A stretch of 64,000 nt of DNA from Microgenomates group bacterium (GCA_041659805.1 JBAZXP010000001.1:128589-192588); one strand, 5' to 3'; numbered from the stretch's first letter, positions 32,714 through 44,860 are shown. Notes: generated by a model not told the origin, from the letters alone. Translations and numbers: made by a program.

Positions 32714-33482
32714 TTAATTTAACAATTTCCTTCCAAAATAGCTAGTCTTTCCTCCTCTTTTTTTCTCATAATTAAATTTTAGTAAAGCGTTGGCTAAAAT
32801 ATTTAAAGAATCAAAAACCGGAATATTAAATCTTTTTGGAAAAATCAGAGGCAGTTCTGTACAGCCCAAGATAATTCCTTCTGCTCCCCTGTTTTGTAAA
32901 GACTCAGTAATTTTAATTAATTTTCTTTTATCCTCACGGATACTTTTTCCGGCAATAATGTTTCTGATAATATCTTCCAAAATTTTCATTTCTTTATTTG
33001 ACGGTTTAATAATTATAAACTCTCCTTTCCGGCCAAACTAACCTTTCCCGGGCTAGTGCCTGTTGAAATAAACCTGATTTAAATGTTGTAGGTGAGGCTA
33101 AAAGCCCTACTTTTCTAATCCCACTGCCTTTAATCTCTCTAGCTATTTCATCAATCATAGAAATAAACAGTACTTTTGAAACATCTTGAAGCTGGCTAAG
33201 TAAAAGGTGGGCGGTGTTGCAAGATATAGATAATATATTAACTCCCATTTTATTCATTTTTCTAACCCGATCTTTTAATATTTTTAAAGCGATTTTTTTA
33301 TTTTTTTCATTCGCAATAAAATCCGGAATTGGGACAGAATCAAGCACTATTTCAGGAAAATCATCGCAATTTACAGCCCCAAATTCTTTGGCTGATAAAT
33401 CCACCAAAAGCTTGACCAAATGCACAGATGCTTGTGGTCCCATTCCTCCTAATATTCCTATAATTTTCTTTTGTTTTTTCAT
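32714..33482 (-). pseudogene. Aspartate/glutamate racemase-family gene split into two ORFs (frameshift near 32990-33010)
   Basis: N-terminal ORF has GILGGMGP and CNTAH; C-terminal ORF has ILGCTELPL; the two are separated by 16 nt in different frames. Confidence 0.5.
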
Positions 33483-33497
33483 AATTTTAGTTTCTAA

Positions 33498-33568
33498 AAT
33501 TTCAAGCTTTGCTTATAATTATTTTCCCTTTTTTCATAATTTCTTAATTTCAAGCTTTGCTTATAATT
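33498..33568. repeat. Perfect 23-bp direct repeat AATTTCAAGCTTTGCTTATAATT, two copies (48-bp period)
   Basis: Read directly from the sequence; contains TATAAT. Confidence 0.6.
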
Positions 33569-33575
33569 TTTGTAC

Positions 33576-33600
33576 AAAAAAATCGCCCTGCCGGCGACTT
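33576..33600 (-). terminator. Rho-independent terminator downstream of 33686..33934
   Basis: TCGCC…GGCGA hairpin followed by T7 on the minus strand. Confidence 0.5.
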
Positions 33601-33685
33601 GGAAAAAGCACAAAAACGCCAACAGGTTTAGTTGTTAATGTTTTGCCAATATTGAATTTCAGAATTTAATAATTCCATATATGTA

Positions 33686-33934
33686 TTATATCACTTTTTC
33701 CTCTAAAACAGGATTAAATTCCATAATTCCAATTTTCCCTGTAACAAAAGCTCTTTTAGAAACTGTTAATATTCTGGAGGGAGCCTCAATCTCCATTAAT
33801 ACTACATCTCTAGATCTTATTTCCTTAAGAAGCACAGGATAAGTTTCCAACACTTTTCCGCCCGCCAAAATAGAGGCTTCAAATTTTTGCCCTTCTTCAA
33901 TACTAAATTTTGGCGTTTCAATTCTTCTGTCCAT
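33686..33934 (-). CDS. Small hypothetical protein
   Basis: ORF only. Confidence 0.3.
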   Translation of the reverse strand: MDRRIETPKFSIEEGQKFEASILAGGKVLETYPVLLKEIRSRDVVLMEIEAPSRILTVSKRAFVTGKIGIMEFNPVLEEKVI

Positions 33935-34020
33935 AAAAAATCCCCAAAAAAAAGACCTTTCGGCTCTTTGGGATAAAAGTATTATAGTAAATTAGCTTTT
34001 TATAGTCAAATTAATAATAT

Positions 34021-34154
34021 AGTAGCAGGAGTGGGGATAAGAAAATCTTGCGACCTACGGTCTTCGAACCTGCTTCTCCACTGTGTGGAGCGCATATTTC
34101 TCCCCAATTACCCCTCAAAACAAAAAATCCCGCATGAAGCGGGACCTTTTGTTT
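34021..34154 (-). repeat. tRNA-Met trailer element A: terminator hairpin + conserved 29-nt motif + 17-nt exact copy of the tRNA-Met 3' end
   Basis: GTAGCAGGAGTGGGGAT at 34022-34038 is identical to 34157-34173; motif GCGCTCCACACAGTGGAGAAGCAGGTTCG (rc of 34064-34092) is 26/29 identical to element B. Confidence 0.6.
34114..34146 (-). terminator. Bidirectional intrinsic terminator after tRNA-Met
   Basis: CCCGC-ATGAA-GCGGG hairpin flanked by A/T runs. Confidence 0.55.
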
Positions 34155-34231
34155 TGGTAGCAGGAGTGGGGATCGAACCCACGACCTCGGCGTTATGAGT
34201 GCCGTGCTCTAACCAGCTGAGCTACCCTGCC
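34155..34231 (-). tRNA. tRNA-Met (anticodon CAT; elongator Met or Ile2-type)
   Basis: Manual cloverleaf: GGCAGGG-TA-GCTC-AGCTGGTTA-GAGC…CTCATAA…GTGGG-TTCGATC-CCCAC-TCCTGCT-A-CCA. Confidence 0.75.
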
Positions 34232-34358
34232 TTGTGCCACCGCTGAAGCTTTAGCAACACGCGGTCGCAAGAAGTTTGCTTCGGCAGGCAAGCCTGCTTG
34301 ACGGAACTTCTTATGGCTAATTCTAACAAATTATAGGGAAATTAGAAAGTTTTCAAAC

Positions 34359-34631
34359 TTAAACTTTAAATTGAACCTGAAGAGAGAGATTCAAGGCTAC
34401 AGCTAAGCGTTTTAAAAAAGAAAGCGAAGGTGTGGTTTTTGCATTTTCAACACGGGAAATAACAGATTGTTTAGTATGTAGTTTCTTTGCTAAATCTTGT
34501 TGACTTAAACCCTGGTTTATTCTGGCATCAATAATAGCTTTGGCAATTTGAAACTCAAGCTCATTTTTCTTGAGAGCTTTTTGTACTTCAGGGTCTTTTA
34601 ATAATTGTGCTTTATGTGTTTTCCAGTCCAT
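34359..34631 (-). CDS. HTH-XRE antitoxin (HigA-like)
   Basis: LSQQDLAKKLHTKQSVISRVENAK helix-turn-helix; immediately downstream of the toxin gene. Confidence 0.6.
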   Translation of the reverse strand: MDWKTHKAQLLKDPEVQKALKKNELEFQIAKAIIDARINQGLSQQDLAKKLHTKQSVISRVENAKTTPSLSFLKRLAVALNLSLQVQFKV

Positions 34632-34680
34632 ATATTAGTATAATATCACATTTTTGCTATAATTACAAACTTTATTTCAA

Positions 34681-35031
34681 TTACCTGGATTTATATTCTT
34701 TTAGTCTTACTAATGCTATGTCGACTTCCCTTTTATCTGTTTTCTGCTTTTTCTTATTAAATCCATGCAGTAATAAAAAGTTTTTCCCGGAAATAGCGAT
34801 ATACAAAATCCTTATATTATCTTGTCCAAGTATTCGAAGTTCCCATAAATCTGTACCAGTTAATTTTTTAGCATGAGGTGGACCAAGCCTAATTCCATAA
34901 CTTTCTAATAAATTAATGGTATTAATTACTTTGTATTTAGCATTTGCATCTAAATTGTTAATGAAATCATATACAGGAGGTGTGCTTTGTTGGGGTGCCT
35001 GATAATATCGGATATTCCACCCCTCATCCAT
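34681..35031 (-). CDS. RelE/ParE-superfamily toxin (HigB / phage Gp49-like)
   Basis: YDFINNLD…KYKVINTINLLESYG…LGPPHAKKLTGTDLWELRI…RILY pattern; toxin-first operon with the HTH antitoxin. Confidence 0.55.
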   Translation of the reverse strand: MDEGWNIRYYQAPQQSTPPVYDFINNLDANAKYKVINTINLLESYGIRLGPPHAKKLTGTDLWELRILGQDNIRILYIAISGKNFLLLHGFNKKKQKTDKREVDIALVRLKEYKSR

Positions 35032-35064
35032 ATCTAAATTATATCATTAGAAAGTTTTATAAAA

Positions 35065-35676
35065 TTACAGAATATTCCTTGGATCTAAAGCTCTTTTCAT
35101 CCGAAGACGTCCTTTTCTGTCTTCTTTCCCTATCCTTTCAAGCTCTAATTCTTCCTTTATTTCTGAATCAGACATTTTAAAAGATTCCATAACCACTGAC
35201 ATAAATTCATCAGATGGGTTTTCTTTACTAGCAATATGTAAAAAATCGGTTCTTTTTCTTGTTCCACGTCCATCCAAACGGATTTCTTCCATCATATCCT
35301 CCCATGATAATCTGACTAAATTTTTATCCGGAGTCTCAGGAGCAAGTTTGGTAATTTTTACAAAAAACACCCCACTACCATTGCAATCAGAACCAAGAGA
35401 AATAAAGTATCTGGGATTATAACCTTCCCCTATATCTAAGGGGTTGGAGAGTAAAAAAGCTCCACCTTCTTTTAATTGATCCACTCTTTGCAATGAAACT
35501 TTACGCAAATGAGCATACTCAGGATCCCCCCACTTTTCTTCTCTGGTTTTCTCAAGAAACCATCCTTGATCAATCGTCCAACCTCTTTTCTCAACCAAAC
35601 CATTTAATATACCAGTGATTTCACCAATTTCTAATTTCTTTGCTAAACAATCATTAACTCTTGTTTCACTTGCCAT
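35065..35676 (-). CDS. Hypothetical protein
   Basis: ORF only. Confidence 0.3.
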   Translation of the reverse strand: MASETRVNDCLAKKLEIGEITGILNGLVEKRGWTIDQGWFLEKTREEKWGDPEYAHLRKVSLQRVDQLKEGGAFLLSNPLDIGEGYNPRYFISLGSDCNGSGVFFVKITKLAPETPDKNLVRLSWEDMMEEIRLDGRGTRKRTDFLHIASKENPSDEFMSVVMESFKMSDSEIKEELELERIGKEDRKGRLRMKRALDPRNIL

Positions 35677-35765
35677 CTTGAGGATATTATTACTTTCTAT
35701 AGTAAAAATTGCAAGTTTTAGAACTCCAAGCTTCCAATTTGAGGCACAAAAGTGTATAATAGCTT

Positions 35766-35837
35766 CGCGGGGTAGAGCAGTGGTAGCTCGTGAGGCTCAT
35801 AATCTCAAGGTCCCAGGTTCGAATCCTGGCCCCGCAA
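35766..35837 (+). tRNA. tRNA-Met (anticodon CAT), initiator-like (C1:A72 mismatch), CCA not encoded
   Basis: CGCGGGG-T-AGAGC…CTCATAA…CCAGG-TTCGAAT-CCTGG-CCCCGCA-A. Confidence 0.75.
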
Positions 35838-35980
35838 CTTAGAACAGAAACCGTCCCTTGTGGGCGGTTTTTTGTTCAAAATGCGGACCGTAGGACAGAG
35901 AATCCGCGCTCCACGCAGTGGTGAAGCGGGTTCGGCAATCCACCACTGGTGGATTGGGCGTGTTATCCTGGCCCCGCAAC
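35838..35980 (+). repeat. tRNA trailer element B: terminator + conserved 29-nt motif + 16-nt exact copy of the tRNA 3' end
   Basis: ATCCTGGCCCCGCAAC at 35965-35980 is identical to 35823-35838; motif GCGCTCCACGCAGTGGTGAAGCGGGTTCG at 35905-35933. Confidence 0.6.
35850..35876 (+). terminator. Intrinsic terminator after the second tRNA(CAT)
   Basis: CCGTCCC-TTG-TGGGCGG hairpin + TTTTTTGTT. Confidence 0.5.
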
Positions 35981-36040
35981 ACAATTCCTATCCCATAACA
36001 GTTGACTTTTAATTTAACAATTCCTATAATCCCCTCAACT

Positions 36041-36631
36041 ATGGCAAAAGAACAAAAATTAGAAACTCAACAGGATTATTGGAAAGCAATTGAAGGACTT
36101 GGTGGCTTTGTTTGGCAACTTAATCATGATCTGGCTGATGGCCGAATCGAAGACCCTCAAGGCACAACTTCAAAAGGTATTTTTGATATGCAGCAAAGAT
36201 TAGAAGGTATTGTTGCAGAACTATGTGATAAATATAATATTATTTCACCCAAAGAATCTACCAGAGTTGATTTTTATACACCTCTTCCTCCTGCGCCAGT
36301 TGGTAAAACTTATTACTGGGAGTGGTATAAAGAACAAAAAACCAGTTACTACACCCAAAGGTACAACGAATTAATTTGTTCCTCTTGCCCAATCGCCAGA
36401 GATATAGAAAGTTACCTCTCGGGCGGATATTCTGATCCCTGTACAAAATATATAGGCAATATATACAACGGCCGCACACCAAAATATGAATGTGCCATGA
36501 CTATTTTAGGAGACTGGAGCAGAGACTGGTTGGAAAGAAATATATCGGCAGAGGGTGGCCCTGAAGCTTTAGAAAAATTTGTAGCCAAAGAGACAGAACT
36601 TAAATCACAATATCCCCAGGAAGCACAATAA
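36041..36631 (+). CDS. Hypothetical Cys-containing protein
   Basis: ORF only; CxxC…C…C pattern. Confidence 0.3.
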   Translation: MAKEQKLETQQDYWKAIEGLGGFVWQLNHDLADGRIEDPQGTTSKGIFDMQQRLEGIVAELCDKYNIISPKESTRVDFYTPLPPAPVGKTYYWEWYKEQKTSYYTQRYNELICSSCPIARDIESYLSGGYSDPCTKYIGNIYNGRTPKYECAMTILGDWSRDWLERNISAEGGPEALEKFVAKETELKSQYPQEAQ

Positions 36632-36632
36632 A

Positions 36633-37436
36633 TTAAGTTAAAAGTTCAATTGAAACAGGAAATTCTGTAAAAACTGAAGTCCATTCACCTTTTAAACGAC
36701 CAAGTGAATCTTTCCACCGAGGAATATCTATTTTAGAAGGTACCAGAATCTCTTTTTGGATGTGTCCTGTTTGTGTCTTTTGTGAGAATAAAACATTTTC
36801 CCCGTTATCTATAATTGAATATAAAAGTTCACCTGCTATCATCTCCTGACCGTCTAACAAGTTCTGTTCTTCCGGTAATTTTTCTTTTCCTTTTGCAAAA
36901 TAATCATATGTATACTCAAAAATATCCCTGACCTTATAGATAAACCATCTTTCTTGATCAATCCTTTTAAAGCAAACCAAAGGGTTATTGGGTTCTTCTT
37001 CCGGTGTAATTAGCCCTGCACCTCTAACTGCCTGTAATGTTCCATCCTGACCATACCAAAAACAACCATATTGTACGTTAAAAGATAATCTACCATCTAG
37101 TCGTTCAAAGACAGAAGAAAGATTAATAACAGCGGGATATTCTTTTTCCTTTTCCGCTTTTGTGCGTTCCAATGGCAAACCCAATCCAAATGGTTTCACC
37201 CAGTAATTATGATCATAATGCAAACAAATCCCCGGATCTAAACAGACAACAATATTATTGGCATAATGTAAGGCACCTGTTTCTTTTTTTCTGGATATTC
37301 GAGCATCAGCCCAATTATATTCTTCAAAAACAACTCTTTCCCCGCTATTATCGGTGTCTCCCATCTCAAAAGGCAACCCATCAATAATCTCCTTCGGAAT
37401 AAGTGATTGCGTTGAAAAGCTAACTCTTTCTGCCAT
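36633..37436 (-). CDS. Hypothetical protein
   Basis: ORF only. Confidence 0.3.
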   Translation of the reverse strand: MAERVSFSTQSLIPKEIIDGLPFEMGDTDNSGERVVFEEYNWADARISRKKETGALHYANNIVVCLDPGICLHYDHNYWVKPFGLGLPLERTKAEKEKEYPAVINLSSVFERLDGRLSFNVQYGCFWYGQDGTLQAVRGAGLITPEEEPNNPLVCFKRIDQERWFIYKVRDIFEYTYDYFAKGKEKLPEEQNLLDGQEMIAGELLYSIIDNGENVLFSQKTQTGHIQKEILVPSKIDIPRWKDSLGRLKGEWTSVFTEFPVSIELLT

Positions 37437-37452
37437 AATGGCAGATTATACA

Positions 37453-37806
37453 CTATTTCCAAAACAGATTTAACCAGCCTTGATAGTTTGGAATAATTTC
37501 TTCTTTTTTCTCCAGCATTGTGCCTAAGACTTTATTTATCTCATCCTGGGAAATAATTACCACAGTTTCTTTTCCCCTGCTAAAATTAAGCCTGTCTCTG
37601 GCCTGAGATTCTATAAATTCATTACTATTTACCTGCTGTAGCTTTGTTTTTAGCTCAGCATTTTGCTTTTGTAGGCTCAGAAGCTTTTCTGTTTCTGTTT
37701 CTAATCTACCTCCTGCCTGCAGTGAATCTATCACCTGACTAATAAGGCTATAACAAATAACTATAACAAATATAAACCCGGCTATATAAGCTAATTTCCT
37801 ATACAT
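37453..37806 (-). CDS. Septum formation initiator FtsB/DivIC-like
   Basis: N-terminal TM, coiled coil, and ESQARDRLNFSRGKETVV C-terminal motif. Confidence 0.55.
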   Translation of the reverse strand: MYRKLAYIAGFIFVIVICYSLISQVIDSLQAGGRLETETEKLLSLQKQNAELKTKLQQVNSNEFIESQARDRLNFSRGKETVVIISQDEINKVLGTMLEKKEEIIPNYQGWLNLFWK

Positions 37807-37853
37807 AGTTTTTATGCTGCATATTTACATTTATCCTATAATGTGGTAAGATC

Positions 37854-38744
37854 TTGAGATCAAACTCAAATATGGATACTACTTTAACTGATGCACGAGA
37901 ACAATTTATCGCTTTTCTAAAAGAAAAAAGCCGCTCTTCCAGTACTATTTTAGCTTATGGGAAAGACATTGAGCAACTTGTCGACTATCTTAAGGCACAA
38001 GATGTTGTTACTCCAAACCAAATTAAAGCTGAATCTTTACAATCTTTCATGCAAAAACTAGCTAATGAAAGCTACACACCTAAATCAATCTCCAGAAAAA
38101 CTAATTCTACTAAAACATTTTTTAAATTCTTAAAAAATAACAGCTTAATTGATTTAGACCCTGCATCTAGCCTGGAACACCCATCTTTTGAAACAAAACC
38201 ACCAAGAATCCTTTCTAAAATGGAATACCGGGCCCTCAGAGATGCTGCCAGAGGAGACATTAGAATGTCTGCTATCATCGAGTTATTGCTCCAAAGTGGA
38301 ATCAGAATTGGAGAACTGGCTAAAGTTACCATTGAAGATGTCAGACTTGAAGCAGAAAATCCAAATATTTATGTAAGAATCGAAGAAGGATCAACAGAAA
38401 GAACCATTCCTTTAACAAAATCTTCTATTGAGGCTATCAAAAAATACCTGGAAATCAGACCAAAATCACAAAGCAAAGCCTTATTTATCACTAAAACAGG
38501 CAGACCATTACTTGTTAGAAACATCAGAACAGCCATTGATAGATATTTTAGATTAGCTGGTATTAAAGGAGCTAAGGTTAATGATTTAAGACACACCTGG
38601 GTCACCCATCAATTAGCTTCAGGATTATCTTTAACTGTTATTTCTAAATTAGCAGGACATAAAAGAGTTTCTACCACAGAAAAATATCTCCAGTATGTTC
38701 CAGCCAGAACCTCAGAAGATAAGATAAAACTCGAAGAGCTTTAA
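37854..38744 (+). CDS. Tyrosine site-specific recombinase (XerC/XerD/phage-integrase family)
   Basis: Catalytic region LRHTWVTH…GHKRVSTTEKYLQY. Confidence 0.8.
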   Translation: MRSNSNMDTTLTDAREQFIAFLKEKSRSSSTILAYGKDIEQLVDYLKAQDVVTPNQIKAESLQSFMQKLANESYTPKSISRKTNSTKTFFKFLKNNSLIDLDPASSLEHPSFETKPPRILSKMEYRALRDAARGDIRMSAIIELLLQSGIRIGELAKVTIEDVRLEAENPNIYVRIEEGSTERTIPLTKSSIEAIKKYLEIRPKSQSKALFITKTGRPLLVRNIRTAIDRYFRLAGIKGAKVNDLRHTWVTHQLASGLSLTVISKLAGHKRVSTTEKYLQYVPARTSEDKIKLEEL

Positions 38745-38905
38745 ACCTTAATTAAACTCCATGCGTCAAACAGCCCGCTTAGGTGAGAATGCAAGCGATA
38801 TAGCATGGCTGGTTGCATTAGGAAGAATCGGTATTAGCGAAAAGACAATTTTAACTGTTTGGGATACCAAGGAAGAAGAAAGCAGAAAATCGAAAAATTC
38901 CGACA

Positions 38906-39023
38906 TCTCTTAAATGGTGAAGCCGGGAGGACAACACACTTCCGCCTTCGGCGGATCCGAACCTCCAACCAGATGTTACATCTCAATCAAAAATTTGAGT
39001 GGAACTGTAGGACTTGAACAGTG
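38906..39023 (-). other. Structured GC-rich trailer downstream of tRNA-Ile (possible third, diverged copy of the tRNA-trailer element); not a tRNA
   Basis: Contains GGAGG-TTCGGATCCGCCGAAGGCGG…-CCTCCCGGCTTCACCA; the 3' part resembles the tRNA-Ile 3' end (TCCTTCCGGGCC). Confidence 0.3.
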
Positions 39024-39095
39024 TAGGCCCGGAAGGAGTTGAACCCTCGTCACGACTGTATAAGAATCGGGTATTAACCGTTATACGACGGGCCT
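39024..39095 (-). tRNA. tRNA-Ile (anticodon TAT / UAU)
   Basis: AGGCCCG-TC-GTAT-AACGGTTA-ATAC-C-CGATT-CTTATAC-AGTCG…GAGGG-TTCAACT-CCTTC-CGGGCCT-A. Confidence 0.65.
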
Positions 39096-39119
39096 AGGTG
39101 CTAATTATATCAAAAAAGA

Positions 39120-39323
39120 CTATTTTAGGAGTGAGGAGATTAAAATTGTGATAGTAATTGAGATTACGATAGTTGATAAAACTGGGATGTAAAATTTCAT
39201 TCCAATTTTATCTATATAAATATCCCCCCACATATGAAACGGAGCCTTGGTAATAAAATTAAAAAGGAGTGTTTCTAAAGTCCAAACAAGCGCTGTAATT
39301 GTCATAATCCTGTTAAAATCCAT
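39120..39323 (-). CDS. Small membrane protein (last gene of the ATPase operon)
   Basis: Two TM helices; start overlaps the stop of the upstream ATPase. Confidence 0.3.
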   Translation of the reverse strand: MDFNRIMTITALVWTLETLLFNFITKAPFHMWGDIYIDKIGMKFYIPVLSTIVISITITILISSLLK

Positions 39324-41674
39324 TAAAGAGATGTCCTCCTGTTTATATCTGCTTCAACCGTTGCTACATCCCTGCCATAAGTTAGTCTGGATAGTTCCTT
39401 AATTGCTGCAGCTATTTCCGGTCTTTTCATCCCGTTCCAGGCGTTAAAATCAATGGAAACTTTCATGGAAAAAGGTGGCACTGGTTCACCGTGAACCTGA
39501 GTTTTCATATATACATGCCATGCTTCCACATTTACCAAATCCTGCTCAGAGAATACCGGTGCAAATTCGTGCTGCAGGAAATTGGCGTCAGTCACACCAA
39601 CTCTGTAAGAAATAACAGTACCCACATTTCCAAAGATGGCATTTTTAATATCTTCCGGCATCTGACCAATAAACTGATTAGCCACAATCAGGTCTAATTT
39701 ATATTTTCTGGCCTCAGATAAAATGGTGGCAAAAGTGTCGGTGGCAAAATTCTGGAATTCATCTACATAAAGGTAAAACGGCTTTCTTTGCTCCTCCGGA
39801 ATATTGGCCCGGGACATTGCTGCTGCCAAAATCTTTGGTACTAAAATTAGCCCTAAGAAGTTAGAATTTTCCTCCCCCATCATACCTTTGGATAAATTCA
39901 CAATTAAAATTTTTCCTTCATCCATAATCTGACGAAAATTAAATGAAGATTTAGATTGCCCGATGATATTTCGAAGCATTCTGTTGGTGACAAATCTACC
40001 AAATTTGGAAACTGTATAATCCAACACTTCCGATTTATGAAAATCAGCAGTGTGGGCAATCTGGTCTGTCCAATAACGCCTGACTACCGGATCAGTTACA
40101 TGAGGCAATAATTCTTTCACATACTCCGGATCCTGCATAATCCTCATCACTTCTACAAAGGTGTTTCCCTGAACCGACATGACAGTTAACATGGCGTTTC
40201 TAATACCGTGTTCAAACCTAGGCCCAATAATACCGGTTTTATTGGGGTCATAAAGCTTATACATCAAACCAATAATTTCCGTAGTGATAAAATGTTTTTC
40301 ATCCTCAGAGATTGCTTCCATCATGTTCATGCCAAACGGCCTATCGACATCTCCCGGATTAAAATAAATCACATCTTTTGCCCTATGAGGAGGTATCAAA
40401 GACAACATCTCTTCAGCTGCATCTCCGTGGGGATCAATGAAAGCCAAACCTCTACCTGCCATAATATCCTGCAACATTAAGGTTTTTAAGAGCGTTGTTT
40501 TTCCTGTACCGGTACGCCCAATCATATACATGTGTCTCTGGCGATCGTCTTCGGAGATAAAAACAGGCCTTTCTGTTCCCCGGAAGATTGATTTGCCAAG
40601 ATATAATCCTTCTGTGGGGATTTTTTCTGAAGCAGGAGCAGACCTAGCTGCCAACCAATTAATATGTGGCGTGGTAATTTGTTTATTGGGAAAATGATAA
40701 ATTGAGGCAATCTCATCTGAAGTTAAAACAGGAGTTTTGGTAAACATCGGCATATAACGGTAAACAAAATCAGTCATAAATCCTTTTTCTGATTTTACTT
40801 TGGCGCCTGTAAAATTATTATAGGGACCGGAAAATTGCTCAAAAGCAGCTTTAATATTAGAAAGATGAGCTTTGGCGCTTTCTTTACTGGTGGAAGATGT
40901 CACGATTCTGATAGCCACATTAAAACCGGGTTTGGAAATTTTAGTTTCAACGGCTTCCAATTGTTTGGCATCCGGCGGTGGCTTAGGAGCATCGGGCTTG
41001 CCTGGTTCTTTTTCTTTTTTAACAAATTTTTTGCCTGCATCTTTCCATTTATTATCAGCCGGAGCAACAACCATCTGAATGACAGCTCCCTCCCCTGTTT
41101 GCATTTTTGCCAAAGCAGCAGTCAACGATGACAAAGGATCAGTCGGCAAATCTTTATAAGTTTTAATGGGAAAATAGTCAGAACTTTTAAGAGTATACAT
41201 CGCATAGGCAGTCTGTCCTTGTTCTGTAAAAATATTATATTCAGGCATTACTTTGATTTCAGCATCAGGATAAGCTCCATGAACTTGTTTTTCAATTAAA
41301 TCCTGTAAAGATTTAGGTACAGAAATATAAAAGGTAATTGCCTCATGTTGAGCCACAATTTCAAAGGAAAAATGTTGTTGAGGTGTAAGATTCATAAATC
41401 CACCTGATTTACGGACAGAATATAAAGCTGCAATCAGCTGTTCTGTGGCATCAATCTTAATATCGTTATCACGGGTCACAGCCACTTTTATTAATACTGA
41501 ATTCAGTGAATCTTTTTCTCTGTTTCGATCTTTGTACCAAGCCAAAAAATACCTGCCAAAATAAAGAATTAATAAAACTACAGCAGCTAAAGCCAGTCCC
41601 AAAACAATAAACAGCATAAAAGCATTAAATATTTCAGGGATAGGTGTAGTTGTTGTGCTTTCGGTTACTTCCAT
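39323..41674 (-). CDS. Membrane-anchored P-loop ATPase of the FtsK/HerA/TraD-VirD4 superfamily (type IV coupling-protein-like)
   Basis: N-terminal TM helix, Walker A MIGRTGTGKTT, Walker B-like LYVDEFQNF. Confidence 0.5.
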   Translation of the reverse strand: MEVTESTTTTPIPEIFNAFMLFIVLGLALAAVVLLILYFGRYFLAWYKDRNREKDSLNSVLIKVAVTRDNDIKIDATEQLIAALYSVRKSGGFMNLTPQQHFSFEIVAQHEAITFYISVPKSLQDLIEKQVHGAYPDAEIKVMPEYNIFTEQGQTAYAMYTLKSSDYFPIKTYKDLPTDPLSSLTAALAKMQTGEGAVIQMVVAPADNKWKDAGKKFVKKEKEPGKPDAPKPPPDAKQLEAVETKISKPGFNVAIRIVTSSTSKESAKAHLSNIKAAFEQFSGPYNNFTGAKVKSEKGFMTDFVYRYMPMFTKTPVLTSDEIASIYHFPNKQITTPHINWLAARSAPASEKIPTEGLYLGKSIFRGTERPVFISEDDRQRHMYMIGRTGTGKTTLLKTLMLQDIMAGRGLAFIDPHGDAAEEMLSLIPPHRAKDVIYFNPGDVDRPFGMNMMEAISEDEKHFITTEIIGLMYKLYDPNKTGIIGPRFEHGIRNAMLTVMSVQGNTFVEVMRIMQDPEYVKELLPHVTDPVVRRYWTDQIAHTADFHKSEVLDYTVSKFGRFVTNRMLRNIIGQSKSSFNFRQIMDEGKILIVNLSKGMMGEENSNFLGLILVPKILAAAMSRANIPEEQRKPFYLYVDEFQNFATDTFATILSEARKYKLDLIVANQFIGQMPEDIKNAIFGNVGTVISYRVGVTDANFLQHEFAPVFSEQDLVNVEAWHVYMKTQVHGEPVPPFSMKVSIDFNAWNGMKRPEIAAAIKELSRLTYGRDVATVEADINRRTSL

Positions 41675-41677
41675 AAA

Positions 41678-42061
41678 TTATACTGCCTTCTGTTCATCAA
41701 TTTTTTGTTGACGGTAAGATTCCATATTAATGATTTTTTTAGATTCAGTAGATCTATCTGTATCCCCTATTCCTTCTGGCAGCATAGCATTAAATTCTTC
41801 TTTAATATTATCCGTCGTTGATGTTATCTCTGCCTCGCCTTGATTTTCTTCAGTTTGGATCTGTACCACACCCTTTAAAAAATCTTCAATATTGGAAGTA
41901 GCTGCATTTTCTGCTACTTCACCTTGAGGGGTAACATCAGCAACTTTTACCCCAACAGCCTCAGCTATTTCTTGTCTTGTTGTTTCAATGTATTGGCTAT
42001 GACCTACTCCCGGCACAACATTAGTCGACTTTAGAATTTCTGGGTCTGAATTAATTGGCAT
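41678..42061 (-). CDS. Acidic hypothetical protein (first gene of the ATPase operon)
   Basis: ORF only. Confidence 0.3.
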   Translation of the reverse strand: MPINSDPEILKSTNVVPGVGHSQYIETTRQEIAEAVGVKVADVTPQGEVAENAATSNIEDFLKGVVQIQTEENQGEAEITSTTDNIKEEFNAMLPEGIGDTDRSTESKKIINMESYRQQKIDEQKAV

Positions 42062-42093
42062 ACACCTATTATATATACAATTTGAAAAAGAAG

Positions 42094-43017
42094 TTAGTCC
42101 AGAGTATCCAGGTATTGTTCCACATCCAGGGCTGCTTTAGCACCTGCCCCCACAGCTGTTACCACTTGTCTGTACTTTGGATCTGCCACATCTCCTGCTA
42201 CAAACACACCCTTAACAGATGTTTGTGTTTCCCCTGTTTTAACAACAAAACCTTTTTCGTCTAAATCCACCTGTCCTTTCAAAAAGTCAGTGGCTGGTTT
42301 GTGACCAATCGCTATAAAAACACCTTCAACTTCTAGAGCAGATTCCTCGCCTGTTTGATTATTTTTAATTTTAACTCCGGTTACTTTTTGATCTCCTAAA
42401 ACATCAGTCACCTCTGAGTTAAAAATAAATTTAACATTTTCTTTGGATTTAACCTGTTCCTGCAAAGCTTCCTGAGCTCGTAATGCTTCCCGACGATGAA
42501 CAACTGTTACTTCCGAGGCTATTTTGGATAGATAAACTGCTTCTTTTAAAGCACTGTCTCCTCCACCAACTATTGCTACTTTTTTGCCTTTAAAAAACGG
42601 CCCGTCACAAACTGCACAGGCAGAAACTCCTCTGCCGATTAATTTCATCTCAGACGGCAATCCCATCCAGACAGGAGATGAACCGGTGGCGATAATAACT
42701 GCCTTAGCTTTGAGAGTTTTTGTATCAGTTGTTATTTCGAATGGTTTTTTGGAAAAATCCACTGATTTCACTTCTTCACGCACAAATCTGGTTTCAAATC
42801 TCTCAGCCTGTTTCCAAAAAAGTTGAGCCAGCTCAGGAGCTTTAACTCCTTCCGGAAAACCGGGATAGTCATCAATTTCTGTGGCCAACGATGGTTGCCC
42901 CCCAGGAACACTACCCGCAATCACTAAAGGTTTGAGCTCGCCACGGGCAGCATAAATTGCAGCACAAAGCCCGGCCGGTCCTGACCCGATAATAATTAAT
43001 TTTTCTATTTCTTCCAT
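42094..43017 (-). CDS. trxB: Thioredoxin-disulfide reductase
   Basis: FAD motif IIGSGPAGLCAAIYAA, redox CAVCDG, NADPH motif VVGGGDSA. Confidence 0.85.
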   Translation of the reverse strand: MEEIEKLIIIGSGPAGLCAAIYAARGELKPLVIAGSVPGGQPSLATEIDDYPGFPEGVKAPELAQLFWKQAERFETRFVREEVKSVDFSKKPFEITTDTKTLKAKAVIIATGSSPVWMGLPSEMKLIGRGVSACAVCDGPFFKGKKVAIVGGGDSALKEAVYLSKIASEVTVVHRREALRAQEALQEQVKSKENVKFIFNSEVTDVLGDQKVTGVKIKNNQTGEESALEVEGVFIAIGHKPATDFLKGQVDLDEKGFVVKTGETQTSVKGVFVAGDVADPKYRQVVTAVGAGAKAALDVEQYLDTLD

Positions 43018-43020
43018 TTA

Positions 43021-43284
43021 TTATTTTACCTTTGTACCAGCTGCAGTTGAGGTCTTAGTCTTGGTGGGGGTCGGACTAACTTTACCGCTCTGTGTTGCTT
43101 GAGCTGATGCGCTTCCTATTACCTGACTGGTTGTTGGTGTTGCTTCAATTTTTATAACTGTGGGGGTAGGTGTTACAACAGCCTGATTAGTTAAGGTTTG
43201 AAATTTACCCCTCGTCCACAGCAAAAATACTACCATCAGAAGAATGATCAAAACAATAATTAATATTGTCACATTTCGATTCAT
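43021..43284 (-). CDS. Small Thr/Pro-rich secreted or anchored protein
   Basis: TM followed by low-complexity sequence. Confidence 0.25.
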   Translation of the reverse strand: MNRNVTILIIVLIILLMVVFLLWTRGKFQTLTNQAVVTPTPTVIKIEATPTTSQVIGSASAQATQSGKVSPTPTKTKTSTAAGTKVK

Positions 43285-43389
43285 CTGTCCTCACCTCCCT
43301 CTTGGCAGTAGATGCCTTTATTCTAGCCGCTCAACTGATTTTGAGCAAGACCTTGTCCCAACGCAAACTTGGTGGTAACATAGGAAAAC

Positions 43390-43794
43390 ATGAAAAGCTG
43401 GCATATAGTTATTGCAGTAATTATCGTTTTGTCAGGGCTGATATTCTTCTTATCAAAATCAACCAACTCATCAAATAAAGCTACTCTAAACCCCAACGCT
43501 TTAACCTATTTTTGGTCAATAACCTGTCCTCACTGTAAAAATGTAGCTGATTTTTTAAATACCTGGCCAAATACTGATAAACTAAACTTAGATAAAAAAG
43601 AAATCTCTGAAGACCGGACAAATCAAGTATTGTTTACTGAAGCAGGGAAAAAATGTAATATCCCCTCAGATCAAATGGGAGTACCTTTGCTAATAACACC
43701 GGATAATAAATGCATTTCCGGCGATCAACCAGTGATCGAATATTTTAAGAGCCTTTTCCCTGATGCTTCCATTTCAGCCACACCTACGCAATGA
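43390..43794 (+). CDS. Membrane-anchored thioredoxin-fold protein (CPHC)
   Basis: WSITCPHCKN motif after an N-terminal TM helix. Confidence 0.45.
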   Translation: MKSWHIVIAVIIVLSGLIFFLSKSTNSSNKATLNPNALTYFWSITCPHCKNVADFLNTWPNTDKLNLDKKEISEDRTNQVLFTEAGKKCNIPSDQMGVPLLITPDNKCISGDQPVIEYFKSLFPDASISATPTQ

Positions 43795-44315
43795 AAAAAA
43801 TAATCACCTTATTTTCTACCTCAACATTTTTGCTCCTAACTTATCTTGCAACAGCCTTACCCGCTAAAGCAGTCTGTCCTGTTTGTACTGTGGCAGTCGG
43901 TGCGGGACTAGGATTATCCAGATATTTTGGTATAGATGATTCCCTCTCAGGAATCTGGGTGGGAGGACTAATTTTATCCACCGCCTTATGGACAGCTGAT
44001 TGGATTCATAAAAGGGGTCTAAAAATAAAAATCAGGGTGATTAATATTGTTTCAATAATTGCGTTTTACGCCTTAACCATTATTCCGCTTTATTATTCAG
44101 GCATAATTGGCCACCCATACAACACAATTTATGGCATGGATAAATTGTTATTTGGCACAATTATCGGTTCCCTTGTTTTTACTTTAGGAATCAGTTTGGA
44201 TAAACTGGCGAGGAAGAAATACGGCAGACAATTTTTTGTCTATCAAAAAGTGGTCTTTCCTGTTGTTTCATTAATGATCATAACTTTAATTTTGTATCTG
44301 GCAATTCATAAATAA
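43791..44315 (+). CDS. Polytopic membrane protein with CPVC at the end of TM1 (DsbB/VKOR-like position)
   Basis: 4-5 TM helices; CxxC motif; translationally coupled to the upstream thioredoxin-like gene. Confidence 0.3.
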   Translation: MKKIITLFSTSTFLLLTYLATALPAKAVCPVCTVAVGAGLGLSRYFGIDDSLSGIWVGGLILSTALWTADWIHKRGLKIKIRVINIVSIIAFYALTIIPLYYSGIIGHPYNTIYGMDKLLFGTIIGSLVFTLGISLDKLARKKYGRQFFVYQKVVFPVVSLMIITLILYLAIHK

Positions 44316-44317
44316 AT

Positions 44318-44860
44318 ATGAGCAAATCCGACGACGTTAAAAATTTACTAAAAAAGGTTGAAGGTGTAACTAAAGAAAAAAAGTTAGACCTTTCCTCTGA
44401 TGAAGATTTATCAATTGCCATCATGAATTTGATTTCAATTGAGGAGCATTTATTTTTTACCTCTCAAAAAACAGGCAAATCTTCTTACCTTGATCTTCTA
44501 AAAGAAGTAAGAGAAATGAGAAAAGATTTGCTCAAAGAAATCATTACAGATTATGAAGGTGAAGTTTGGTGTATTTCCAAACATTTATTGGCTTCATCCA
44601 TGAGGCTGATGGAAGTAGGAACAAAAGAATTAGGAAAAGGCAATAAATCCAAAGCAGAAGGTTTATTTACCAAGGCATATAACCTCTACTCTCTTTTCTG
44701 GGGCATTAATTTAAATATTGTTCACACAGATAATGTTAAAAGAAATGATACTGAGATCAATTTTATGGATGAAAAAACACCGCAAAAAAAATCTTCAGGA
44801 TCTATTTTTGATAAATTAGGTGAGGTTGTTAAAAAAGCAGTTGATTGCTGCAAAGAATAG
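44318..44860 (+). CDS. Hypothetical protein
   Basis: ORF only. Confidence 0.3.
   Translation: MSKSDDVKNLLKKVEGVTKEKKLDLSSDEDLSIAIMNLISIEEHLFFTSQKTGKSSYLDLLKEVREMRKDLLKEIITDYEGEVWCISKHLLASSMRLMEVGTKELGKGNKSKAEGLFTKAYNLYSLFWGINLNIVHTDNVKRNDTEINFMDEKTPQKKSSGSIFDKLGEVVKKAVDCCKE

Follow-up and report, generated by a model that had tools for sequence, protein, structure and literature searches.

Candidate att-like structured modules ending in exact tRNA 3'-end copies behind tRNA genes of Ca. Daviesbacteria

In the genome of a Microgenomates group bacterium, two tRNA(CAU) genes face away from each other, and each is followed by a short trailer that closes with a second copy of that tRNA's own 3' end. 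What these trailers are, and why a displaced piece of tRNA stands at the far end of each, is the question raised by this locus. The DNA analyzed here is a single 64,000-nt stretch (GCA_041659805.1, JBAZXP010000001.1:128589-192588), referred to as the window. Both tRNA genes, placed here by a preliminary description, are recovered by ARAGORN and Rfam, and the label "initiator-like" appears fair for the second, which has a C1.A72 mismatch (Rfam alignment) and A11:U24 (read from the sequence). Over 34186-44593 and 35762-38468 the window is matched at 100% identity by two Logan contigs that come from other sequencing runs, and the agreement of these independent assemblies excludes the assembly artifact once raised as an objection. 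Sequenced samples in which this strain is present include SRR18595301 and SRR6484324. The features of the two trailers, termed modules A and B, are as follows.

34155-34231, minus strand: elongator-type tRNA(CAU) "A" (tRNA-Met); ARAGORN, Rfam tRNA score 62.2 bits
34022-34154, 133 nt, minus strand: module A, whole, delimited by the repeat
34116-34154, minus strand: left end of module A, with an A-tract, GC hairpin and U-run in the shape of a bidirectional intrinsic terminator (fold)
34101-34115, minus strand: 5' segment of module A, AGGGGTAATTGGGGA, the 5' strand of closing helix P1, which pairs with the tRNA-end copy (fold)
34066-34100, minus strand: conserved arm of module A, P2 (GAAAU.UGC / GCAGGUUC) capped by hp1 (CUCCAC-ACA-GUGGAG, 34076-34090)
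34052-34062, minus strand: hairpin hp2 of module A (GACC-GUA-GGUC; fold)
34022-34038, minus strand: displaced exact 17-nt copy of tRNA A positions 58-74, equal to 34157-34173
35766-35838, plus strand: initiator-like tRNA(CAU) "B" (tRNA-fMet); ARAGORN, Rfam tRNA score 64.7 bits
35839-35980, 142 nt, plus strand: module B, whole, delimited by the repeat
35842-35877, plus strand: terminator-shaped hairpin and U-run of module B (fold)
35882-35897, plus strand: 5' segment of module B, TGCGGACCGTAGGACA (fold)
35900-35933, plus strand: conserved arm of module B, P2 (GAAUCCGC / GCGGGUUC) capped by hp1 (35909-35923)
35937-35955, plus strand: hairpin hp2 of module B (AAUCCACC-ACU-GGUGGAUU; fold)
35965-35980, plus strand: displaced exact 16-nt copy of tRNA B positions 59-74, equal to 35823-35838

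The repeats are exact, as first reported: direct copies of 17 and 16 nt that run up to C74 of their own tRNA. Copy A supplies the 3' strand of P1 and also marks where module A ends on the right, and copy B bounds module B on the right, where the next 8 nt are ACAATTCC. P1 of module B joins UGCGG with CCGCA and UAGGA with UCCUG of the copy. Folding bears out the intrinsic terminators proposed after the tRNAs, with strong GC hairpins and then U runs directly 3' of both genes; a simple terminator scanner flagged only the A hairpin, in its plus-strand version, and the stem of B is bulged. The shared 29-nt motif is likewise real, with exactly two occurrences in the window (34065-34093, minus; 35906-35934, plus), the first of which sits inside the conserved arm of module A. 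In 100 shuffles the chance expectation is zero, and a search with an unfiltered covariance model found no third copy in the window. ACCGTAGG, also said to recur in both trailers, is present, but its two positions do not correspond (in A it falls in hp2, in B in the 5' segment) and 5/100 shuffles reach at least two matches, so it is given no weight. The two modules are mutually inverted and have 34 nt in common at 85% identity. No ORF was found between the repeats in either window module, and a promoter scan found no promoter of the module's own between terminator and P1. Comparison of the module ends by eye for terminal inverted repeats gave a weak A-rich similarity, which lends no support to a casposon- or transposon-like reading. 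Beyond the copies lie two promoters found by motif scan.

33981-34009, minus strand: promoter TTGACT-17-TATAAT (11/12 consensus positions) of the next gene
36002-36030, plus strand: promoter TTGACT-17-TATAAT (11/12 consensus positions) of a 196-aa gene

The first begins 13 nt past copy A and is native flank, outside module A. The second lies 22 nt beyond copy B and is either native flank or separate cargo.

The modules belong to a family. Besides decayed ones, some of them in further genomes, six intact members were found in four Ca. Daviesbacteria genomes, behind tRNA-Met, tRNA-fMet and tRNA-Lys: two in the window, one behind tRNA-Lys in JAQTZF (L001; 18-nt copy), those behind tRNA-Met and tRNA-fMet in L017 (16 and 17 nt), and one behind tRNA-fMet in L028 (16 nt). 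Their common plan is a tRNA, a terminator, a G-rich segment, a core (8-bp P2, hp1 with an ACA loop, hp2) and an exact copy of tRNA positions 58/59-74. The limits of the copy are constant, starting at position 58 or 59 and ending at C74 in 6/6 modules. Members measure ~125-160 bp, contain no ORF, also occur singly (tRNA-Lys), and always lie 3' of a tRNA and co-oriented with it. Scores under a covariance model are 47-62 bits for the six, and in the ~650 kb searched no other sequence exceeds 18 bits.

With a strict pattern, a motif scan of a genome collection yielded one true match, the tRNA-Lys module of L001, and a scan of JGI metagenomes yielded just two chance matches inside a coding sequence. 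Four viral scans gave chance matches with no tRNA nearby, the best covariance-model matches falling in a capsid-like ORF, and no module on a viral contig. Rfam 15 at E<=1 recognized tRNA genes alone (window 33000-40000, L001, L032); weaker matches are far below gathering scores, and none overlaps a trailer. No prior description of this structured module was found, nor is it in Rfam 15. The truncated hemoglobin that neighbors the Lys module, used as a query, found no orthologous locus in the window genome; its nearest relatives are at most 82% identical, the named ones are not Daviesbacteria, and none comes from the window genome. Look-ups with the 82-aa flank protein and a TTG-start version of the 196-aa protein returned no matches.

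Core A (Met, window) and core C (Lys, JAQTZF) are identical at 58/63 positions, or 92% as counted by hand, against a mean identity of 80% over aligned, mostly coding DNA of the two genomes. Between the window and L017, the match spanning tRNA-Met plus trailer is 79.8% identical, a figure that includes the conserved tRNA, against a genome mean of 70.4%. These alignments indicate that the module core is conserved above the coding average.

A 91%-related genome, L012, presents the locus without modules. Its tRNA-fMet and tRNA-Met match those of the window at 98.9% and 98.7% over BLAST matches that include flanking bases, the gene sequences being identical, and neither gene is followed by a module. 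The L012 tRNA-fMet passes at once into ACAATTCC (...GCAAC|ACAATTCC), which in the window follows the copy (copy|ACAATTCC). Because the L012 gene meets ACAATTCC directly, the module is a unit of insertion or deletion with the repeat as its boundary. The flank common to both genomes at this site is only 8 nt, owing to an inversion. In L017, a second, native-looking terminator is retained beyond the copy. Order and orientation of the tRNAs vary among relatives, the orientation of tRNA-fMet included: the two genes are adjacent, co-oriented and lack a toxin-antitoxin islet in L012 and L029, and they form the same divergent pair with quite different genes between (SET, GIY-YIG) in L017 and L028. The 1.6 kb between the tRNAs of the window contains the following.

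34341-35058, minus strand: HigBA cassette, flanked on both sides by ATTAGAAAGTTTT
34341-34353 and 35046-35058: ATTAGAAAGTTTT direct repeats, 13 nt
34359-34631, minus strand: HigA antitoxin, HTH_3 (PF01381), E=9.5e-16
34681-35031, minus strand: HigB-type toxin, PF05973, E=3.5e-22

Pfam confirms the predicted toxin and HTH-XRE antitoxin as a HigB/Gp49-type toxin of the RelE superfamily followed by an HTH antitoxin, the toxin gene lying upstream on the minus strand. The preliminary description was right in kind about att-type duplications at tRNA genes, as the exact repeats and the empty site in L012 attest. It erred in having them delimit the islet, which lies 5' of both tRNAs, outside their repeats, and has its own ATTAGAAAGTTTT. 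The HigBA and 203-aa genes, both located between the tRNAs, are cargo independent of the modules and arrived separately. No PADLOC or Pfam match was obtained for the 203-, 196-, 267- and 82-aa proteins.

These arrangements bear on a reading of 34021-35980 as a single mobile element that carries HigBA between inverted ends derived from tRNAs, a reading that is extremely improbable. The modules are indeed inverted and share their 34 nt, recombination of one with the other could flip the stretch that separates them, and tRNA-fMet does differ in orientation among relatives. A cassette with tRNA-derived inverted terminal repeats nevertheless conflicts with modules that are found singly elsewhere and always on the outer, 3' side of tRNAs of variable order and orientation. 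L017 and L028, moreover, keep the divergent pair around other genes, HigBA has a repeat of its own, and L012 carries an uninterrupted target.

The best explanation, with a probability of roughly 45%, treats the trailers as structured, att-like and non-autonomous cassettes at a hotspot for insertion into tRNA 3' ends. In this view a tRNA gene would have received, at its 3' end, a lineage-specific, ORF-less module. The intact tRNA, ended by the module's own terminator, would represent attL, and the exact 58/59-74 copy would be the displaced original tRNA end, or attR. A recombinase acting on tRNA-gene ends might then move or remove the cassette in trans, and a folded single strand, either ssDNA or read-through RNA, might present the tRNA-gene end as a duplex. 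A regenerated tRNA with a displaced fragment is the known signature of tRNA-gene integration (PMC4383910, PMC9897764).

Several observations count against this explanation. No integrase, transposase or reverse transcriptase gene was found in or beside any module, and the nearest recombinase is a conserved single-copy Xer (37872-38744), which lies outside the repeats and whose synteny is unchanged in all relatives with or without modules. An insert of 126-145 bp is, to our knowledge, far smaller than any described tRNA-integrating island. A classical integrase does not easily explain one core at three tRNAs with perfect repeats. Modules stand at the same sites even where a genome's Xer protein is no more than 78-80% identical to that of the window. 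With shared sites and with each copy following its own tRNA's substitutions, the modules look partly vertical, a pattern expected equally under selection on a functional RNA and under mobility.

The histories of individual sites raise the alternative of inert scars, in which larger islands were deleted down to two att arms with no present function and similarity reflects common descent. Fragments of tRNA left by integration are common (PMC9897764), and decay is visible in two genomes: the L021 module has lost hp1 and its copy has decayed as well, and in L030 an old module was displaced outward by a 271-aa cassette, with a CCCCGCAAC junction left behind. Cargo at that L030 tRNA accumulates serially, the newest adjoining the tRNA, and ORF-bearing cassettes with 9-10-nt tRNA-end copies occupy the same sites in L001, L014 and L030; these cassettes, like the decay, count for the att-like explanation too. 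Scarring is improbable all the same; it requires six independent copies to have been trimmed to one 95-125-nt plan, and it sits poorly with cores conserved above their genomes and with the substitutions in the stems.

All six modules fold unaided to P1, P2/hp1 and hp2, with P1 closing a junction that bears the P2/hp1 arm and one or two more hairpins. In P2/hp1, 89% of cells are paired and five pairs are changed on both sides; 0/500 shuffles reach the observed level, and slid controls give 32-43%. The hp1 stem occurs as UCCAC/GUGGA, GCCUC/GAGGC and AGAAC/GUUCU, and stems in general vary by compensatory double substitutions with loops and linkers fixed. P2 has seven G.U against one A.C, a count that favors the tRNA-sense strand as the one that folds; whole-module folding energy divides 3 vs 3 between sense and antisense and is not decisive. 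P1 tracks the tRNA, UUGG/CCAA in L017 and L028 becoming UAGG/CCUG in the window, and 4/6 5' segments pair with their own copy better than, or as well as, with the ends of unrelated tRNAs. It consists of two boxes with a 2-4-nt bulge in the 5' strand in 6/6 modules. Its statistical support is moderate, with shuffle p values of 0.02-0.5 and a Lys copy no better than shuffles.

The acceptor-like helix first envisaged for a structured trailer thus survives in part: the tRNA-end copy does pair, but its partner is the G-rich segment after the terminator and not GCAGG. Complementarity of GCAGG or GCGGG to the 3' acceptor strand is true of the two window copies; the meaning attached to it, that the A/G difference tracks the tRNA, fails on comparison. 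In the Lys trailer GCAGG stands beside a CCGGCUC acceptor strand and in the L017 fMet trailer beside CCCCGCA, and the A/G base covaries with U/C inside P2 (UGC/GCA vs CGC/GCG).

A fold of this kind would also be expected of a tRNA-derived structured small RNA of 95-125 nt made by terminator read-through or processing, an alternative that is possible, if on the unlikely side. The repeat would then be functional mimicry and not a transposition footprint: the closing helix, built with the tRNA's 3' strand, would mimic the acceptor/T-arm, and selection would keep the match. Such an RNA could signal processing; where an enzyme or toxin reads the 3' ends of tRNAs, it could instead serve as decoy or competitor. 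The compensatory changes in P2/hp1, the predominance of G.U over A.C (7:1) on the tRNA-sense strand, the uniform co-orientation with the tRNA, a core more conserved than coding DNA and the joint loss of hp1 and copy in L021 all speak for it. Copies also follow lineage-specific changes, at tRNA-Met position 66 (U/C) and in tRNA-fMet, where CCUGG vs CCAAC is mirrored in the copy with the 5' segment compensating, and the 5' part resembles a tRNA 5' end and D loop on reading (GGGGUA, UGG.AGAGC). An RNA product is harder to reconcile with the strong hairpin and 5-7 U between tRNA and module, with the lack of both room and match for a promoter, and with the lack of CCA, an intact T loop and an Rfam family match. 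It would also be dispensable, given the precise absence in L012 and repeated loss.

Farther along the window lies another partial tRNA.

38915-39016, minus strand: pseudo-tRNA-Ile, directly after tRNA-Ile(UAU)

It has a single A in place of the anticodon loop and a 25-nt hairpin insert in place of A58, and it retains the sequence from position 59 to the end. The window and L017 agree to the base: a lone A stands for the 7-nt anticodon loop, no more and no less, and the insert for A58 alone. The window copy ends in ACCA, and the L012 gene of that type encodes no CCA. This pseudo-tRNA is possibly a second type related to the modules. The m1A58 modification blocks reverse transcriptase at the 18-nt mark, as in retroviral plus-strand strong-stop synthesis. 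The copies (74 back to 58/59) and the pseudo-tRNA-Ile might accordingly be cDNA of mature tRNA, with the core added by template switching and with breaks where modified bases stop or derail the enzyme (A58, anticodon-loop positions 34 and 37). The start at 58 or 59 in 6/6 copies, the exact replacements in both genomes and the ACCA end would fit such retro-copying. It is very improbable, however: the window has no reverse-transcriptase-like ORF (a YxDD scan gave FtsH and one unrelated ORF), the copies halt at C74 rather than A76, and the complementary 5' segment is left unexplained.

Integration of islands and prophages in tRNA genes by tyrosine integrases is reportedly treated by Reiter in 1989 and Williams in 2002. 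The modules resemble such islands and prophages (Islander, PMC4383910; PMC9897764) in the intact tRNA with a displaced 3' fragment in direct orientation, in presence or absence with exact boundaries, and in serial cargo at one tRNA (L030). They differ in having only 126-145 bp, no integrase and no ORF, in one core placed at three tRNAs with each repeat perfectly matched, and in an interior whose fold covaries and pairs, at its 5' end, with the displaced fragment.

Integron attC sites and the forked hairpin of CTX-phi attP(+) are folded single-stranded recombination sites. Like the modules, they measure ~60-150 nt. The modules may further resemble them in conserving structure over sequence, in a bipartite imperfect stem whose extrahelical bases are confined to one strand, in a tip that varies or branches, and in a stem that re-creates the chromosomal target duplex in cis. 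Unlike attC, the module ends on reading lack a GTTRRRY core, and neither intI nor an array was found locally; unlike both systems, the conserved part of the module is its tip and not its stem ends, and use as ssDNA would be conjecture throughout.

Small, ORF-less, non-autonomous derivatives of IS200/IS605 (PATEs) and further miniature elements with hairpins share hairpins near both ends and strictly oriented insertion beside a defined target, and the stretch inside the module that complements the target is reminiscent of the DNA "guide" of IS608. The complementary stretch and terminal copy of the module span 10-17 nt vs 4-5 nt, however, the end geometry differs, and no Y1 transposase or TnpB matched among the local ORFs scanned (64-kb window and relatives' flanks).

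A bolder variant is speculative and considered unlikely: Daviesbacteria (CPR) would carry a class of mobile cassettes, miniature, without ORFs and not described before, that find tRNA 3' ends by folding and can be retargeted (Met, fMet, Lys) through a few base changes, with the pseudo-tRNA-Ile a product of the same machinery. As ssDNA or RNA, the guide-like internal segment would pair with the tRNA-end sequence and re-create the target duplex, as in attC or CTX-phi.

Placement beside a tRNA gene in the same orientation, and a closing helix that uses a genuine tRNA 3' strand (the T-stem 3' strand, acceptor 3' strand and discriminator), are also shared with tRNA-like structures, including viral TLS, plant mitochondrial t-elements, mascRNA and the tRNA-like domain of tmRNA. 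The module departs from these in a core of 65-85 nt that replaces the T loop, no encoded CCA, a 3' overhang of 2-5 nt and no Rfam match.

Partial tRNA copies are usually read as passive scars; here the insert is a conserved, gene-less fold whose ends are matched to each tRNA. If mobile, the modules would offer a minimal system for studying recognition of tRNA-gene ends and would show how tiny, recombination-poor CPR genomes gain and lose HigBA, Nudix and hemoglobin cargo at tRNA hotspots. If RNA, they would constitute a new mimic of tRNA ends, and this in bacteria with a scarcely explored RNA biology. Their tRNA copies, together with the pseudo-tRNA-Ile, can mislead tRNA annotation and island-boundary calls in CPR genomes.

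In L012, AGGGGTAAT adjoins the shared promoter region and could be what remains of a Met module since deleted; at 9 nt the match is too weak to claim. In the window, an empty site A would read tRNA C74 joined straight to TATATTATT.

Two tRNA(CAU) genes in the window, an elongator-type tRNA-Met (34155-34231, minus strand) and an initiator-like tRNA-fMet (35766-35838, plus strand), are called by both ARAGORN and Rfam. Each is followed by a terminator with a strong GC hairpin and a U run, and then by a folded trailer, module A (34022-34154) or module B (35839-35980). The trailers end in exact copies of the tRNA 3' ends (34022-34038 repeats 34157-34173, 17 nt; 35965-35980 repeats 35823-35838, 16 nt). 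The preliminary description had reported these features together with a shared 29-nt motif, and all hold: the motif occurs twice in the window with no third occurrence, where zero are expected by chance. An assembly artefact, which it named as a possible refutation, is excluded, since the region is 100% identical in contigs from two other sequencing runs. The preferred reading, with a probability of about 0.45, is that the module is a non-autonomous att-like cassette. Such a cassette would supply the regenerated tRNA with its terminator, its folded single strand would present the end of the tRNA gene as a duplex, and it would be inserted and lost in trans through a recombinase encoded elsewhere. 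The repeats, the family, the empty site, the decay, the covariation, and the hotspot described below are observed, whereas the enzyme, movement in trans, and the nature of the folded molecule are inferred.

The modules belong to a small family. Scanning species-representative genomes with a strict motif added one copy, behind tRNA-Lys(UUU) in the Daviesbacteria MAG JAQTZF; it has a terminator and the shared core, and it repeats the tRNA-Lys end exactly over 18 nt. Orthologous loci from Daviesbacteria relatives (L numbers below) supplied three more, at tRNA-Met and tRNA-fMet of L017 and tRNA-fMet of L028. The six intact copies score 47-62 bits with a core covariance model, and nothing else in the window, the relatives' loci, or viral matches exceeds 18 bits; decayed copies occur in L030, a weak match to the model, and L021. 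Modules measure 125-160 bp and contain no gene, and the repeat in all intact copies starts at tRNA position 58 or 59 and stops at C74, one base beyond the discriminator (two in Lys). Islands are well known to carry partial tRNA copies. This family has no match in Rfam 15 and no description in the literature searched, and its range as known is narrow, a Daviesbacteria subclade.

All six modules, each folded separately, adopt one architecture. Helix P1 forms between the tRNA-end copy and the G-rich segment directly behind the terminator; it consists of two boxes, and its 5' strand has a 2-4-nt bulge. P1 closes a junction from which the long arm and one or two more hairpins extend. The long arm is helix P2 (A type, GAACU.UGC/GCAGGUUC; B type, GAAUCCGC/GCGGGUUC) with hp1 as its cap; hp1 has an ACA loop and a stem of 5-6 bp, in the versions UCCAC/GUGGA, GCCUC/GAGGC, and AGAAC/GUUCU. 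The long-arm alignment has 89% of its cells in pairs and five pairs with changes in both partners; these values were reached in 0 of 500 shuffles, and shifted partners gave 32-43%. These compensatory changes fit poorly with the modules being inert scars, which is very unlikely. In its corrected register P2 has 39 Watson-Crick pairs and seven G.U against one A.C, so the folding strand is the tRNA-sense strand. The single A/G difference in the motif, earlier thought to track the tRNA, is instead pair 6 of P2 (U-A versus C-G): GCAGG stands beside CCGGCUC in the Lys module and beside CCCCGCA in the L017 fMet module. The hp2 element is a hairpin in every copy, with unrelated sequences. P1 changes from UUGG/CCAA (L017, L028) to UAGG/CCUG (window), matching the differing tRNA-fMet T stems. 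Its support is weaker than that of the long arm, as swap and shuffle tests reached moderate significance only and the Lys copy did no better than chance.

The cores of the window tRNA-Met module and the JAQTZF tRNA-Lys module are identical at 58 of 63 positions (counted on the printed sequences), against a mean of 80% between the window and that genome over aligned, mostly coding DNA. The tRNA-Met-plus-trailer HSP with L017, which takes in the conserved tRNA gene, is 79.8% identical against a genome mean of 70.4%. Terminator stems differ freely among modules, and the core is therefore either strongly constrained or recently exchanged.

An empty site is present in L012, which belongs to the same genome as the tRNA-Lys copy (Xer 91%, DNA about 80% identical to the window). 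Its tRNA-Met and tRNA-fMet gene sequences equal the window's, yet neither carries a module. Immediately 3' of its tRNA-fMet lies ACAATTCC, eight bases found likewise after the module B copy in the window, a match at a fixed position with a chance of about 1.5e-5; homology ends beyond it because tRNA-fMet is inverted in L012. In L017 the tRNA-end copy has a second terminator behind it, an arrangement predicted if the two together represent the gene's original end. A functional RNA that mimics the tRNA end would explain equally well why copy, 5' segment, and tRNA evolve together, but its transcript must pass a strong terminator and the module is dispensable, making this explanation unlikely.

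Other inserts occupy the same position. In L030 (8402-9333), a 271-aa single-gene cassette separates tRNA-fMet from an old, decaying module, and the junction retains CCCCGCAAC, a 9-nt copy of the tRNA-fMet end. In L014 (8951-9610), about 650 bp with one ORF (107 aa) lie between tRNA-fMet and a degenerate 9-nt end copy (CCCCGCAAC). The structured modules have longer repeats than these two cassettes. At the JAQTZF tRNA-Lys locus, L001, a gene separates the module's tRNA-end copy from a second, degenerate tRNA-Lys end:

L001:1224-1697, Nudix gene
L001:1776-1830, degenerate tRNA-Lys T-arm and 3' end (CGGCTCACAA) with a hairpin
L001:1876-2322, group 1 truncated haemoglobin

The nearest relatives of the haemoglobin found by search are at most 82% identical, and the few named ones are not Daviesbacteria. 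Insertion hotspots in this clade are thus the 3' ends of tRNAs. The modules and these three cassettes are each bounded distally by a tRNA-end copy, a recognised mark of integration at such genes (PMC4383910, PMC9897764).

The main difficulties for the cassette are its tiny insert, one core serving three tRNAs, and the lack of any recombinase near the modules except the housekeeping Xer. Candidatus Daviesbacteria (Microgenomates, CPR) carries Xer as a single-copy gene, at 37872-38744 in the window, with orthologues of 70-91% identity and conserved synteny in relatives. The conserved order is FtsH, tRNA-binding protein, TrpRS, a variable stretch, DivIC, Xer, tRNA-Ile(UAU), DUF2905, and DUF8128. 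The variable stretch, from TrpRS to DivIC, holds both tRNA(CAU) genes, whose order, orientation, and intervening genes vary between genomes.

The tRNA-fMet gene itself also varies. Among close relatives (the window, L012, L014/L032, L017/L028/L021/L030, L029, and L024), its T stem has at least five compensated versions (CCAGG/CCUGG, ACAGG/CCUGU, GUUGG/CCAAC, CUAGG/CCUAG, and GUGGG/CCCAC). It also switches orientation between close relatives. Repeated replacement of its 3' part by incoming DNA would be expected to give such variation. In L032 (1-305; Xer 86% identical), its anticodon loop is interrupted by about 225 nt of inserted sequence, probably a group I intron; the insert has no Rfam match, the split gene is not called by ARAGORN, and no trailer follows tRNA-fMet at that locus.

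A second, possibly related type lies near Xer:

38915-39016, minus strand, pseudo-tRNA-Ile, directly after tRNA-Ile(UAU) (39023-39095, minus strand)

This pseudogene is of the type that is the functional tRNA-Ile gene in L012. A single A replaces its seven-base anticodon loop and a 25-nt hairpin insert replaces A58, with position 59 to the 3' ACCA intact. Both lesions recur in L017, where they affect a copy of its own tRNA-Ile. A decayed version is present in L029. The adjoining working tRNA-Ile(UAU) is a different gene with a 3' part like the L014 type, and the tRNA therefore seems to have been replaced. The window's insert (GATCCGCC..GGCGGA..GTGTT) resembles hp2 and the tail of module B (AATCCACC..GGTGGATT..GTGTT), which suggests that one process may break tRNA-like sequences at position 58 in both cases. 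The break fixed at A58 would suit an origin of the tRNA-end copies by retro-copying; no reverse transcriptase was seen in the window, and this origin is highly improbable.

Between the tRNAs, HigB (PF05973) and an HTH_3 antitoxin adjoin a 203-aa protein without a family, as first described. These genes lie on the 5' side of each tRNA, not within the segments that the repeats delimit, and the modules are not terminal repeats of a cassette. L012 and L029, in which the tRNAs adjoin each other, lack these genes, and other relatives have a SET or GIY-YIG gene in the HigBA position. A 13-nt direct repeat, ATTAGAAAGTTTT (34341-34353 and 35046-35058), bounds the HigBA pair and is single-copy in L012, between its two tRNAs. 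A partial third copy, GCAAGTTTTAG (35711-35721), lies beyond the 203-aa gene. The copies suggest serial cassette insertion at this spot. Three proteins without Pfam or PADLOC matches are probably further small cargo:

35065-35676, minus strand, 203 aa
36041-36631, plus strand, 196 aa
36633-37436, minus strand, 267 aa

Judged by gene length and Pfam only, genes of such sizes are absent from the locus in L012, L017, and L028. A GC-rich imperfect palindrome (34269-34312; 21-nt arms, 71% complementary, without a U run) separates the HigA stop from the 5' end of tRNA-Met; L012 has a different hairpin there. Both genes downstream of the modules have an identical promoter, matching 11 of 12 consensus positions:

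33981-34009, minus strand, TTGACT-17-TATAAT, starting 13 nt beyond the module A tRNA-end copy
36002-36030, plus strand, TTGACT-17-TATAAT, starting 22 nt beyond the module B tRNA-end copy
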